Shown here: positions 6,668 through 10,995 of the stretch, in pieces | Position numbering within the stretch: position 1 is the first letter of the stretch | How the letters are laid out: the number at the start of each line of letters is the position of its first letter | NCBI GenBank assembly: GCA_963728405.1 | Contig: CAVSJV010000003.1 | Location: forward strand, 64,001 to 128,000 | DNA from: Methanomassiliicoccaceae archaeon | GTDB taxonomy: Archaea; Thermoplasmatota; Thermoplasmata; Methanomassiliicoccales; Methanomassiliicoccaceae | Length of the DNA stretch: 64,000 nt | Reading direction: 5' to 3' | The notes under the pieces: model-generated | Databases searched by the model: none | What the model was told of the DNA's origin: nothing | The model's input: only the letters and a program-made list of their open reading frames with translations | Position numbers and translations under genes: made by a program

Positions 6668-6740
6668 CGTCCGGGACCCTGGCCTATCGGGGCTAGGCAA
6701 AGGTCCTTTTTTTATGTACGGCATGCATTGCCGCATACCA

Positions 6741-7556
6741 ATGGTCGCGGACAAGAAGAATGAGAGGACCGACCCGTGCATCGAGTGCATCTCCAAGGAA
6801 AGGGGATCCCACGGAGATGCCTGGAGAAATGTTCACGGCTCATATTTCTCTGACCACGACATCGCCGCGCCGTTCCTGGACGATATCGTGGCCGCGCTCA
6901 ACACCGTCCGGCCGGACGTTATTGCCGACATCGGGGGAGGGACCGGATTCATCCTCCGCGAGCTATCGAACAGGGAAGGTGTTCGAGGGACCAGACTGCT
7001 CAATGTCGATGCGTCCCAGGAACAGCTGGAAGTATGCAGGGGGAGTGGGCTGGAACGCCGGTGCAGTTCGGTCATGGAGATCGAGCGGGGGGACCTGGCG
7101 AGCGAGAATGAATCGTTGACCATCATCAGCCGGTCGGTGCTGCACTATTTCGGACGGGAGGGGCAGCCCTCCTTCCTTCAGAAGTTGCGCTCCCTCCTCC
7201 TGCCGGGAGAGATGTTCATCCATCAGCCCGCCTGCTTTGCCACCCCTGAACTGCGGTCCTGTATGAACGAACTCTATCCGCTCATGGGGGTGGACAAATA
7301 CTATTCTACCCCCCAGGACCTGGAAGAGATGCACCATCGGGCCGGTTTCGATGTACTTCGCTCCCTGCCCGGCCCACCGCTGGACCTGAGATCGGAGGAC
7401 CTGGCCGTTCGCTACGGGCTCGATTCGGAGAGAGTGGAGGAGCTGGTCGATGTCATCCGGCGGTATGGTCTGGACCGGGACGGCGTTTTCGATGTCAGGC
7501 CCGGCGGGTTCCGGACCGAGTTCACCTACCGCATCCTGACGCTGAGGGCGGTTTGA
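6741..7556 (+). CDS. Class I SAM-dependent methyltransferase
   Basis: ADIGGGTG motif I, NVDAS, RSVLHY, LLPGEMFI. Confidence 0.85.
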   Translation: MVADKKNERTDPCIECISKERGSHGDAWRNVHGSYFSDHDIAAPFLDDIVAALNTVRPDVIADIGGGTGFILRELSNREGVRGTRLLNVDASQEQLEVCRGSGLERRCSSVMEIERGDLASENESLTIISRSVLHYFGREGQPSFLQKLRSLLLPGEMFIHQPACFATPELRSCMNELYPLMGVDKYYSTPQDLEEMHHRAGFDVLRSLPGPPLDLRSEDLAVRYGLDSERVEELVDVIRRYGLDRDGVFDVRPGGFRTEFTYRILTLRAV

Positions 7557-7596
7557 AGAGGCCTTCATTTTGCTTCGCGTTTTCATCAACGTCAAC

Positions 7597-7603
7597 TATA
7601 AAT
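7597..7603 (+). promoter_or_regulatory. TATA box, probable original coaBC promoter
   Basis: TATAAAT about 30 nt upstream of the reconstructed coaBC ATG (AT at 7631-7632). Confidence 0.5.
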
Positions 7604-7632
7604 CTCCCGCTACGGGTCTTGCTGTCATCCAT

Positions 7633-8931
7633 TCGTGCGTGGGGAAAATTCCTCTCACCAGGGAGGGAGGAAGCAGCGCCCTTTATGATAAGTGTAAAGG
7701 CAATGGTAATATTACCTGACGGAGATACAACAGCGATGCAACGCACCATGCGCCTCTGGCTTGAGACAAGGCACGAAGATGCTTTAGCCCTGCTCAGAAC
7801 CATGGAGGAGTACACACAGGCGTTCGACATCGTGGCCGAGTGGGGATACCGGAATCACTCGAACAATAAGATAGACGCCCACAAGAATACCTATCGGACG
7901 GTCAGGCAACAGATTCCTAACCTCCCCTCATCCCTGGTCCAATGCGCAAGGGATTGCGCCTGCGAGGCGCTGAGAGGAATGAAAATGAATGGCTCTGCGT
8001 ACCAGCCTAGGCGGAATCCCCATGCTGCTCTAAGATACAACAAGTGCGTTGCATCTGTCTATTTGGAGTCAGGATATGTTACTCTTGCCACAGTATCAGG
8101 TCGTGTCAAAGTCACCTTCATTATCCCGGATTACTTTCATAAGTATGATGGCTGGAAAGTAAGATCCTCTAACTTGATCTACGACCGAAGCTCCAAGACC
8201 TTCTACCTCTGCATAAATCTTGAGACTGATAAAATACCCGATACGACAGTAGAGAAAGGCGTTCTTGGTATCGACCGGGGCATCAAAAACGTCGCCGTTA
8301 CCTCGGATAATCGATTCTTCAACTCCAAGGCGATCAACAACGTGCGCGGCAGGTACGCATACTTGCGCGGGCAGCTTCAGTCAAAAGGCACTCCCTCCGC
8401 AAAACGAAAATTAATGAGATTGAGCGGGCGAGAGAGACGGTTCAAGGCTGACGTGAACCACAGGATCGCTAAGGATATTGTTAACACCCCTTACGGGGTG
8501 TTCGTCCTGGAGGACCTGGCCCACATCGTGGAGAATAGGTTATATAGGAATAAAGGAAGCATAACTCGACATAGGAAGAACCAGAAATTAAGTAATTGGT
8601 CTTTCTACCAGTTCGAGGAGTATCTCCATTATAAGGCAGAGGAAAGAGGCAAGACTGTCATCTTGGTGGACCCGTCCTACACCTCGCAAACGTGTCCGAG
8701 GTGCGGCTGCGTTCATCGGGAGAACCGCCACGGCTCTTCCTTCGAGTGCATCGAATGCGGCTACCAGCTGCACTCGGATCTCGTTGCCTCCAGGAACATC
8801 GCTCAGCTTGGTATATCTGAACTGAGCAGGCTTCTTGTCAACAAGCCAATCGTAGCGTGCCATGACATCAAGGTTGGTTACCTTGGGAGAGGACAGTTAC
8901 AAGCCCTATCGCCGGAGGTGGGGTAGTTGAC
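7633..8931 (+). mobile_element. IS200/IS605-family (IS1341-type, tnpB only) insertion sequence
   Basis: tnpB gene with lower GC than its flanks; left-end hairpin TTCCTCTC/GGGAGGAA (7649-7672); right end CAAGCCC...GGGGTAGTTGAC with hairpin 8903-8924; joining the flanks restores CCATGCATCCT. Confidence 0.8.
7736..8926 (+). CDS. tnpB: RNA-guided endonuclease TnpB
   Basis: RuvC triad (GIDRG, VLEDL, HSDLVASRNI) and zinc ribbon CPRCG...CIECG; catalytic residues look intact. Confidence 0.95.
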   Translation: MQRTMRLWLETRHEDALALLRTMEEYTQAFDIVAEWGYRNHSNNKIDAHKNTYRTVRQQIPNLPSSLVQCARDCACEALRGMKMNGSAYQPRRNPHAALRYNKCVASVYLESGYVTLATVSGRVKVTFIIPDYFHKYDGWKVRSSNLIYDRSSKTFYLCINLETDKIPDTTVEKGVLGIDRGIKNVAVTSDNRFFNSKAINNVRGRYAYLRGQLQSKGTPSAKRKLMRLSGRERRFKADVNHRIAKDIVNTPYGVFVLEDLAHIVENRLYRNKGSITRHRKNQKLSNWSFYQFEEYLHYKAEERGKTVILVDPSYTSQTCPRCGCVHRENRHGSSFECIECGYQLHSDLVASRNIAQLGISELSRLLVNKPIVACHDIKVGYLGRGQLQALSPEVG

Positions 8932-10129
8932 GCATCCTTCCGAGAGCATCCGGAGCGCCAAGGGACGGCAGCTTGAGGGTAAGAACATCGTCCTGGGGAT
9001 GACCGGAAGCATCGCCGCGGTGGAGTCCTTCGAGCTGGTGCGGGAGCTCATCCGCCATGGTGCGGACGTCCAGGTGGTGATGACCGCCGAGGCGGCCAAG
9101 CTGATGACCCCCTACACCATGGAGTTCGCCAGCGGCCATCGGGTCATCACCGAGCTGACCGGGGCGACCGAGCACATCAGCCTGCTGGGCGACTATCCCG
9201 GAAGGGCGGACCTGTTGCTGGTATCGCCGTGCACGGCGAACACCATTTCCAAGATGGCCCTGGGCATCGACGATACGCCGGTCACGACCATGGCCACGGT
9301 GGCCATCGGGTCGAGGTTGCCGGTGCTGATCGCCCCCGCCATGCACCTGGCCATGTACGAGCACCCCGCGGTGCAGAGGAACGTCGAGGCGCTGAAGAAG
9401 ATGGGCGCGGCGTTCATCGGTCCGACGGTCCAAGGCAAGAAGGCCCGGGTCGCCACCGTCGATGAGATCGTAGAGCGGGTCATCGTCCAGTTCGCTGATG
9501 CCGACCTCAAGGGAAAGAAGGTGCTGATCATCGGCGGCTCCTCCGAAGAACCGATCGACCAAGTAAGGGTGATCACCAACAACGGTACGGGCGAAACGGC
9601 AGTCCAGATCGCTCAGGCCGCGTCCGAGCGGGGGGCCGACGTGGAGCTTTGGACCGGGCGCATGACGGTACCGGTGCCCTCCGGCCTGAAACGCCGGACC
9701 TTTCGACGGGTGGAGGACCTCTTCCTCATGCTTGAGTCGATCGACCACGACGCGGTAATTGTTCCAGCATCTCTCTCGGACTATGCACCAGTGGAGACCA
9801 AGGGGAAGATCCCTTCCGGACGGAAGGAGCTGGAGATCAAGCTGAAAGGCCTGCCCAAAGTGCTGCCAGCCCTTAGGAGGCGGACCAGGGTGCTGGTAGG
9901 GTTCAAGGCCGAGGTGGGGCTAGCAGAAAAGGAACTGCTCCGCCGGGCCAAGGTTCGCCTGGACGAATATCATCTGGATATCATCGTGGCCAACGACCTG
10001 AACAATGTGATGCCATCGCGCACCAAGGCCGTGCTCATCACATCCAAGGGCGAACAGGTCCCCTTTGAAGGGAGCAAAAGAGAGCTGGCCGACCAGGTCC
10101 TGGACGAAGTGTTGAAGGTCCTGGAATGA
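8927..10129 (+). CDS. coaBC: Bifunctional phosphopantothenoylcysteine decarboxylase/synthetase; TTG start supplied by the IS end
   Basis: LGMTGSIAAV, PCTANTISKMALGIDD, APAMH, EPIDQVRVITN, VGFKAE, IVANDL. Confidence 0.95.
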   Translation: MTHPSESIRSAKGRQLEGKNIVLGMTGSIAAVESFELVRELIRHGADVQVVMTAEAAKLMTPYTMEFASGHRVITELTGATEHISLLGDYPGRADLLLVSPCTANTISKMALGIDDTPVTTMATVAIGSRLPVLIAPAMHLAMYEHPAVQRNVEALKKMGAAFIGPTVQGKKARVATVDEIVERVIVQFADADLKGKKVLIIGGSSEEPIDQVRVITNNGTGETAVQIAQAASERGADVELWTGRMTVPVPSGLKRRTFRRVEDLFLMLESIDHDAVIVPASLSDYAPVETKGKIPSGRKELEIKLKGLPKVLPALRRRTRVLVGFKAEVGLAEKELLRRAKVRLDEYHLDIIVANDLNNVMPSRTKAVLITSKGEQVPFEGSKRELADQVLDEVLKVLE

Positions 10130-10995
10130 GAGCGATCGGGTTCTGTCCTGGCCACCTCACCGGATTCTTCTTTCCCTGCGAGCATGATGACCCCCTTCGC
10201 TCGGGCTCTCGCGGAGCAGGGCTGTGCGTGGACAAGGGCGCCACTAGCACTGTCACCGTTTTCGAAGGGCGGGGCGAGGTCGTCGTCACCATCAACGGCC
10301 GGGAAGCAGCGGCGCCGGTCACCCGTTCCACCGTGGCCTGGCTAATGGAGGGAAGGCCGTTCGACCTGACCATTGACACGGTAATGACCCTGCCGGTCAG
10401 CGCGGGGTTCGGTATGAGCGCCGCCGGTGCGTTGTCGGCCGCCTTCGCCCTGGCCGAGGCCTTGGAGCTGCCGCCGGAGAAGGCTTTCGAGGCGGCCCAC
10501 CGGGCCGAGCTTGGTCACCGGACGGGGCTGGGAGACGTGCCCGCCCTGACGAGAGGGGGCATGACCTTCCGCAAGAAAGAAGGCCTGCCGCCCTACGGGC
10601 AGGTGGACCGAATAACCGATCGGCTGGACATCATTGCCGCTGTAGTGGGTGAGGGCATGCACACCGCCAACGTTCTTGGGAACGAAGAACAGAGGTTCAG
10701 GATCGACCAGGCCGGAAGAGAATGCTACATGTCCTTATGCCGCGAACCGACCGTGGATAACTTCTTCCGACAGAGCCGCCAATTCACCGAAATGATCGGC
10801 ATCGCCACCCCCCGGATCATGAGGGCCCTGAGGGACGTGGACGCCTTCGGCCATGGATCGATGATCATGCTCGGCAACGCGGTCTTCGCCACCGGGGACG
10901 TGGACGCCATCGACCGGGCGTTACAGGCCTACGGCCCGACCTATCGGCTCTCCCTCGATACCAAGGGGCCGCGGGTCCTGGATGTCGAGTTCTGA
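10126..10995 (+). CDS. Pantoate kinase (GHMP family)
   Basis: FCPGHLTGFF, GSRGAG, PVSAGFGMSAAG, AHRAEL..TGLGDV; adjacent to coaBC. Confidence 0.9.
   Translation: MRAIGFCPGHLTGFFFPCEHDDPLRSGSRGAGLCVDKGATSTVTVFEGRGEVVVTINGREAAAPVTRSTVAWLMEGRPFDLTIDTVMTLPVSAGFGMSAAGALSAAFALAEALELPPEKAFEAAHRAELGHRTGLGDVPALTRGGMTFRKKEGLPPYGQVDRITDRLDIIAAVVGEGMHTANVLGNEEQRFRIDQAGRECYMSLCREPTVDNFFRQSRQFTEMIGIATPRIMRALRDVDAFGHGSMIMLGNAVFATGDVDAIDRALQAYGPTYRLSLDTKGPRVLDVEF

Follow-up and report, generated by a model that had tools for sequence, protein, structure and literature searches.

A TnpB-only transposon in the start codon of an archaeal coaBC gene, and a translation start apparently rebuilt from its right end

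The coaBC locus

The stretch of DNA considered here (the window) is 64,000 nucleotides (nt) long, covers positions 64,001 to 128,000 of contig CAVSJV010000003.1 in the Methanomassiliicoccaceae archaeon assembly GCA_963728405.1 (genome G000), and holds a transposon lodged within the start codon of coaBC, a single-copy gene of coenzyme A (CoA) biosynthesis whose product should be essential for that pathway. The genome is 93.75% complete and carries mcrA, and the host is therefore a methanogenic archaeon. The parts of the locus described in this section all lie on the + strand. The locus opens with the native coaBC promoter, a TATA-like box (TATAAAT, 7597-7603) 23 nt before the A of the ancestral ATG, followed by TCAT (7625-7628), the target-adjacent motif (TAM) given by the empty sites, whose last two bases, A7627 and T7628, opened that ATG. 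The G that once completed the codon now stands at 8932, as the third base of an added threonine codon, ACG. Between them sits a TnpB-only element of 1303 bp (7629-8931) belonging to the IS1341 group of IS200/IS605 insertion sequences, its extent defined by empty sites in relatives and by a right end common to related copies.

The left end of the element (7629-7735), which starts CCAT-TCGTGCG, aligns with those of copies in genomes G011 and G015, its subterminal hairpin being degenerate here. It leads into tnpB (7736-8926; 396 codons and a TAG stop), identified by GIDRG, LEDL and SDLVASRN motifs, a CxxC...CxxC zinc ribbon and profile matches (PF07282, 6.4e-25, and PF01385, 4.7e-09, in Pfam; NF040570, 182.7 bits against a cut-off of 100). 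The protein aligns to solved TnpB/Cas12f chains with its GIDRG, CxxC...CxxC and D-x-x-A-x-RNIA motifs in register. Its start, ATG 7736 (ATG-CAR-MG), is conserved, being common to the G011 copy and to a second copy on contig C9 of G000; the exact sequence from this ATG was absent from the protein collection searched. At 50.7%, the GC content of the element compares with 60-62% in its flanks. The last 36 nt (8896-8931) form a right-end module and predicted 3' part of an omega-RNA, made up of GTTACAAGC, an 8-bp hairpin with a tetraloop (8904-8923) and GGTAGTTGAC. The loop and 3' arm of this hairpin include a Shine-Dalgarno (SD)-like GGAGGTG (8914-8920), and the tnpB stop TAG abuts, in the same frame, the TTG with which coaBC would now begin (8924-8929). 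If descriptions of TnpB elements apply, the guide part of the omega-RNA would be the first ~20 nt of the coaBC coding sequence (8932-8951).

Downstream, coaBC itself (8927-10129; 400 aa) matches the Pfam Flavoprotein and DFP families, the flavoprotein domain beginning at residue 19, and NCBIfam coaBC_dfp (339.8 bits against a cut-off of 219.7). CoaBC is present in all 41 related genomes, with one match in G000. A pantoate kinase-like GHMP kinase gene (10126-10995; NF040725, 181.5 bits, under its 380-bit cut-off) overlaps coaBC by ATGA and hence depends on the coaBC transcript. Every motif quoted in an earlier note on this DNA is in place: the box at 7597-7603, ...GTCATCCAT ending at 7632, GGAGGTG at 8914-8920, and the tail TAG (8924-8926), TTG (8927-8929), then ACG CAT CCT TCC.

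Empty sites, borders and target

The uninterrupted form of the locus is found in relatives. In the closest, G003, whose CoaBC is 91% identical, the sequence runs unbroken as ...GTC ATG CAT CCT TCC GAG..., and a start of the form ATGCAYCC (M-H-P-S/V/A-E) is present at 28 of 29 related loci, the 29th being truncated. Proteins P0002 and P0003, cluster mates at 90% identity, start MHPSE; the CoaBC of the window starts MTHPSE. Compared with these empty sites, the inserted block is 7629-8931, with a left flank ending GTCAT and a right flank starting GCATCC, and its borders cannot slide because the bases flanking each junction differ. No bases were duplicated on insertion, either at coaBC (G003 and 27 further relatives) or at the C9 site (five of five relatives). 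The empty sites agree with the earlier note that the element splits the coaBC start codon between AT and G, and they place its right border where the note had it, at 8931; the left border, given there as 7633, lies 4 nt further left, at 7629. The proposed target, (T)CCAT, has to be replaced, since CCAT belongs to the element and the empty sites give TCAT, or TCAC in one copy: across the four copies of the subfamily described below, the left flank is TCAT in three and TCAC in one. At the coaBC start, TCAT|G is available in 15 of 28 relatives.

An AT-rich box stands ~22-24 nt before the coaBC ATG in 28 of the 29 relatives (spacing read by eye), and the counted TATA-to-ATG spacing is 23 nt both in G000, to the ancestral ATG, and in G003. 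The idea that coaBC was originally near-leaderless agrees with this retained box, and its spacing, which fits the genome-wide peak of TATA-like hexamers described below, suggests that the ancestral gene was leaderless.

The insertion was also met in a different strain. Contigs of run X1, from another metagenome and 95-99% alike (~97%), bridge both junctions of the element, and a contig of run X2 (at least 99% alike) bridges the left one. The presence of the element in the coaBC start codon is confirmed at the DNA level.

A predicted translation start at the right end

The element finishes TAG-TTG-AC and is followed by the host G, which gives an in-frame TTG ACG and adds one threonine codon to the gene. 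This TTG (8927) is the sole in-frame ATG, GTG or TTG between the TAG and the nucleotide-binding motif GMTGSIAA. Upstream of it, GGAGGTG is a 7-nt complement of the 3' end of the 16S rRNA (...GGATCACCTCCT). When the positions of initiation signals were profiled over 1934 crude ATG-started open reading frames (ORFs) of G000, SD 5-mers rose from a background of ~10 per position to 44-99 at -13 to -9, and TATA-like hexamers peaked at -30/-29 and dropped afterwards; with both peaks present, G000 uses both modes of initiation. The GGAGG of the right end begins at -13 from the TTG, inside the SD peak, and TATAAA begins at -30 from the old coaBC ATG. We propose that the insertion switched coaBC from the leaderless to the SD-led mode. 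On this point the earlier note, which held that the right end supplies an SD and an in-frame TTG, is sustained by the 7-nt match and by its position.

Methionine aminopeptidase removes methionine before threonine and keeps it before histidine. The mature CoaBC would consequently match the proteins of relatives in length, with threonine in place of methionine. Fold prediction agrees with the further suggestion that the SD overlaps the right-end hairpin, and stop-start coupling, in which ribosomes finishing tnpB re-initiate on coaBC, is plausible. The sense strand of the element is free of any run of four or more T, so read-through from the coaBC promoter would meet no obvious stop signals, and a second possible promoter for it is offered by an AT-rich box that the letters show 20 nt ahead of the tnpB ATG.

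Related copies of the element

A right-end pattern search of 261 genomes of the order returned 11 places in 6 genomes, four of which share the left-end type or right-end hairpin type of the window and make up its subfamily; all four lie at gene borders. A left-end pattern search of the 24 genomes of the family gave 8 matches, three of them left ends (window, G011 and G015) and the other five a single sequence in five genomes of the genus that by eye looks like a host gene and was rejected. Searching for related loci with the TnpB protein yielded 21, the best of them 50% identical and too distant to define ends, and viral contigs scanned for the subfamily right end gave no match.

The second copy at a start codon is a 431-bp deletion derivative (G011:C20, L085) with flanks ...GGAGG-N9-AT | G CTG GAT..., TCAT on its left and GAGGTG in its right end. 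With the element in place, a 255-aa ORF starts TTG ACG CTG GAT; it encodes the methanogenesis marker protein Mmp4/MtxX, and the start ATG of mtxX aligns with the ACG codon of G011 in 13 of 13 orthologues (12 in the register given by the tool, one after realignment). As the alignments read, G011 mtxX is a second, independent start codon split and rebuilt alike, in a related genus; inspection of other copies, proposed in the earlier note, has produced a further case. The Mmp4/MtxX homologue of G000 itself (G000:C4:191446-192182) is in two pieces with an internal TGA, relatives having one open frame, and may reflect a frameshift, a pseudogene or an assembly error.

Besides the window copy, the element family in G000 comprises one 69%-identical degraded paralogue and three short tnpB-like pieces. 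The paralogue (C9:8203-9210; L049, ~1218-2508), its tnpB broken by stops, lies antisense to its neighbours and was inserted after a TCAT that corresponds, on the other strand, to the ATGA with which folP starts. Neither neighbouring ORF was broken, and the empty site reads stop, 0-1 nt, then ATG in five of five relatives. The neighbours are a TfrB-like iron-sulfur gene, whose TGA borders the element on one side, and the dihydropteroate synthase gene (folP), whose ATG borders it on the other. Through the insertion these once contiguous genes lie 1.3 kb apart, and folP has gained an in-frame ATG-AAT ahead of its start. The fourth copy, a 399-bp derivative (G015:C20, L086), follows TCAC and lies antisense within the final amino-acid codon of a leuA-like gene (G015 gene names being taken from translations). 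Both derivatives (431 and 399 bp) keep their two ends and look like miniature non-autonomous elements, each with an unbroken mini-ORF that joins N- and C-terminal parts of TnpB in frame and ends at the usual TAG. The mini-ORF of G011 was considered as a sign of coupling and set aside as non-discriminating, the G015 derivative, which precedes no gene, being equally open.

The right-end module in the wider family

A metagenome search with the pattern GTTACAAGC-N17-GGTAGTTGAC gave at least 119 stretches, of which 80 loci were analysed; a class-level search matched 8 of 401 genomes and contributed 6 further right ends, with L257, L260 and L264, which the recognition pattern missed, and L261 left aside. 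In an alignment of 81 right ends the two ends of the module are invariant by construction, having served as the search pattern. The 17 variable bases, with a flanking C and GG, fold into the 8-bp stem and tetraloop, and they covary: 93.5% of cells are paired, against 63% when shuffled and 35-57% with a slid partner, and six of the eight pairs have changes on both sides. The hairpin of the window is predicted at -13.1 kcal/mol, compared with the usual -15 to -17. This 36-nt module, with its T-rich tetraloop and textbook covariation, is very widespread (L095-L174; at least 119 stretches) and could serve as the basis of a covariance model with which to search for TnpB right ends and guides. Of the predicted omega-RNA, the covarying terminal hairpin and an invariant border are seen; the window copy has no Rfam match, and no reads show the RNA.

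Since GGTAGTTGAC, which the search pattern fixed, directly follows the covarying hairpin throughout the family so sampled, its presence needs no start-donating function. TAG-TTGAC appears to belong to an old module that works for the transposon. The TTG and its frame seem to come with every copy, a good SD being special to the subfamily of the window. An SD 5-mer at usable distance occurs in only 6 of the 81 right ends, and the 7-nt match in the window alone, which runs counter to the conservation of GGAGG that the earlier note expected. Its expectation that such elements often hit start codons fares no better in the wider family: the first flanking base in the 80 metagenome copies is A in 28, T in 24, C in 17 and G in 11, and a rebuilt start was found in 0 of these 80 and in 0 of the 6 class-level copies from other families. 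An ORF of at least 100 codons in the TTG frame follows 4 of the 80, none of them a rebuilt start when the translations were read by eye. One is nested in another tnpB, its TTG frame running into the C-terminal half of the host TnpB (L102); another struck a HAD-like gene inside its body (L126); a third precedes an AT-rich ORF of doubtful reality (L113); and in the last the start more likely lies further in (L155). The SD of the window may reflect a filter, in that no copy lacking a good one could have rescued a start, or it may have been improved once the element was in place.

Persistence, decay and surroundings

Several features bear on the age of the insertion. No Y1 TnpA (PF01797) was matched in G000 at its 93.75% completeness, the family being present in 2 of 24 genomes of the host family, and the window element is non-autonomous and probably immobile now. 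Its left-end hairpin folds, as DNA, at -5.1 kcal/mol (z +0.9), whereas that of the G011 copy reaches -19 kcal/mol (z -3.6) and that of the G015 copy -17.2 kcal/mol (z -4.5). Because TnpA is missing, the left-end hairpin is eroded and the GC content departs from that of the flanks, the insertion looks old, foreign and now immobile, and it appears to sit in a gene still under purifying selection. Among the differences listed between the window and the X1 strain, coaBC has 8 synonymous and 4 non-synonymous (first 81 codons) and tnpB has 7 and 13. Unlisted differences in 8821-8937 number at most one (record 4: 22 differences, 21 listed, none there). No joint skipping the element was found among the run contigs, a weak negative since contigs cannot show rare alleles.

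The surroundings are themselves changeable. In G000 a 280-aa S-adenosylmethionine-dependent methyltransferase-like gene (6714-7556) separates thymidylate kinase from the coaBC promoter; a thymidylate-kinase-like C-terminus, recognised by eye, seems to end just before the coaBC TATA box in G005 and G023; and the sequence upstream of coaBC differs in G003 also. Within the genus, the DNA ahead of coaBC is therefore variable.

How the start may have been rescued

The explanation that we favour, with a probability of about 0.68, is fortuitous rescue by a right end that was already suited to the task, the outcome being kept by selection; expression is a prediction of this account. A non-autonomous TnpB-only element would have inserted 3' of TCAT and split the ATG of a leaderless, single-copy coaBC. 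As its right end finishes with the hairpin and TAG-TTGAC, any insertion at TCAT|G would yield TAG TTG AC|G, and the 3' arm of the hairpin, rich in G in this subfamily, would double as a strong SD. Transcription from the old coaBC promoter, from a left-end promoter or from both may read through the element, and CoaBC and the pantoate kinase would be translated as a downstream cistron from the SD and TTG, ribosomes terminating at TAG probably opening the hairpin that holds part of both signals. Rescue would then be incidental to a right end whose conservation serves transposition and the guide RNA; the insertion would have been retained by selection since CoaBC synthesis survived, and the element fixed while decaying as a transposon. 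TnpB has been reported to process its own mRNA into guide RNA (PMC10278001). If it does so here, TnpB would compete with translation on one RNA, and the guide drawn from the first coaBC codons, together with TCAT, would be identical, over the bases compared, to the empty allele of G003.

Five points weigh against this explanation. The SD and TTG lie partly within the predicted structure of -13.1 kcal/mol, and TnpB bound to the right-end RNA could block ribosomes. The sole RNA-library match, a 270-nt contig of run X9 (~97% alike), covers 7749-8018 inside tnpB, crosses no junction and is possibly DNA-derived. The synonymous and non-synonymous counts from X1 are partial, 10 further differences lying outside those listed. 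Finally, half of the subfamily, two copies of four, splits a start codon, with the best SD matches in both, which is above random expectation and fits an adaptive alternative. As an observation in its own right, the X9 contig hints that tnpB, or a close copy, is transcribed somewhere, DNA carry-over being possible.

That adaptive alternative, which we consider unlikely, holds that the TCAT subfamily uses TC-ATG starts as safe harbours and that its right end has been selected as a portable SD and TTG, whereby host genes keep working and tnpB and its guide RNA ride the host promoter. In its favour, the start is split in sense in the window and in G011 mtxX, the C9 copy adjoins an ATG on the other strand, and the two start-splitting copies carry GGAGGTG and GAGGTG, motifs whose 5-mers are so scarce in the wider family; the coaBC start of many relatives also offers the target. 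Of the 29,727 TCAT sites in G000, moreover, only 205 would split a predicted sense ATG start. With 7,173 further sites in DNA left non-coding by the crude ORF calls, a copy able to persist only at non-disruptive sites would have a ~2.8% chance of lying at a start codon. The index event, being a single insertion, is not open to the usual chance estimate; leaving it out, one of three subfamily copies sits at a start (P ~0.08), an excess that is suggestive, though short of decisive, for the adaptive reading. Against it stand the smallness of a sample of four copies and the fact that purifying selection alone would gather survivors at gene borders, the fourth copy lying at a stop codon. TAG-TTGAC occurs with any flanking base, none of the other 80 + 6 copies rebuilds a start, and the bases of the SD form the 3' arm of a hairpin that covaries. 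A general start-codon strategy is unsupported in the wider family; in the small TCAT subfamily it may exist, with low probability. Put more mechanistically, the hairpin, TAG and TTGAC would constitute a stop-restart cassette, always in frame at TCAT|G, through which the lineage exploits start codons, a proposition we regard as doubtful. If it were true, the transposon would gain the promoter of an essential gene for tnpB and guide RNA, and its right end, lost only by exact excision, would become the permanent translation start of the gene.

Two further possibilities concern whether, and from where, coaBC is expressed. A promoter inside the element, towards its 3' end, might drive coaBC with no read-through, and coaBC would then be translated independently of tnpB translation. 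Candidates are the AT-rich GGTATATC at ~8811, where TATAT at 8812 is the only AT run of five or more in the last 130 nt, and a GTTACAAG box ending 24 nt before the TTG, near the native 23-nt TATA-to-ATG spacing; neither resembles the TATA-like hexamers that peak upstream of G000 genes, and we judge this arrangement improbable. That the locus is non-functional, coaBC having been inactivated or the insertion being an assembly artefact or minority allele, is very improbable indeed. It could draw on the incompleteness of the genome (93.75%) and on the inability of contigs to reveal rare alleles, and it has to contend with an intact 400-codon ORF overlapped by pantoate kinase, with independent contigs of two runs that bridge the junctions (X1 both, X2 the left), with inter-strain changes in coaBC that are mostly synonymous, with the single coaBC match in G000 and, weakly, with the lack of an element-skipping joint among contigs.

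A TnpB-CoaBC fusion made by pyrrolysine (amber) read-through, conceivable from the shared frame, was rejected, there being no PylS above cut-off and no tRNA-Pyl. ARAGORN reports 36 tRNAs in G000, none labelled Pyl or with a CTA anticodon, and TAG ends 440 of 1936 crude ORFs (~23%). G000 is thus a genome with mcrA in which PylS and tRNA-Pyl were not detected, an absence limited by its 93.75% completeness and by a set of only 36 tRNAs.

Significance and comparison with known systems

If the favoured explanation is right, translation of a single-copy CoA-biosynthesis gene is now initiated from the end of a transposon, a form of tolerance achieved without splicing. The conversion of a leaderless gene into a downstream cistron would allow leaderless and SD-led initiation in archaea to be compared in a natural experiment, and a three-way conflict is predicted on one RNA, between guide-RNA formation, translation of tnpB and translation of the host gene. 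For annotation, an ORF that opens with TTG right behind a tnpB stop may be genuine and essential. TnpB biology gains a TCAT-targeting family whose right-end module is sharply defined and very widespread. In the abstracts and article passages that the literature search covered, no account was found of a start codon being rebuilt by the right end of an IS200/IS605 element.

An IS200/IS605 element without its own tnpA is by definition a member of the IS1341 group. The window element resembles that group in its TnpB with RuvC and zinc ribbon and in insertion 3' of a 4-nt target with no duplication; the family has imperfect subterminal hairpins at both ends, the left one being eroded in the window, and no TnpA was found in the genome. 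In the report on Halobacterium sotRNAs, which are of IS1341 type (PMC4615843), a structured RNA overlaps the tnpB 3' end and bears an 'RE-like tetraloop'; the module of the window is similar in overlapping the tnpB 3' end, running to the element border and forming a tetraloop hairpin. Unlike known IS1341 elements, the border bases of the window double as the tnpB stop and as the SD and start of a host gene, and the predicted guide is the first codons of that gene.

IStrons, as described in two sources (10.1101/2023.11.20.567912, PMC4227781), reach the same outcome, an IS605-type insertion that leaves the gene usable, and the same sources raise a possible conflict between guide RNA and host-gene expression on one transcript that may arise here too. 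A search of 7400-9200 on both strands with cmscan (E up to 1) gave no match to any of 4227 Rfam families, group I introns included. The description of the element as an IStron counterpart consequently stands for its outcome alone. Unlike IStrons, the window element involves no ribozyme or splicing, adds a threonine, replaces ATG with TTG and works only at start codons.

Termination-reinitiation couples translation in prokaryotic operons. The likeness lies in the abutting TAG and TTG and in an SD that falls within the upstream ORF and is partly hidden by structure; the difference is that the upstream cistron is a transposon gene newly placed before a formerly leaderless gene, where coupling is a prediction. 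Insertion sequences can likewise give outward promoters to their neighbours, as in the activation of bgl by IS1 or IS5. The window element is similar to these as a mobile element giving expression signals to a host gene, and unlike them its signals would be translational, replacing a destroyed start and activating no silent gene.

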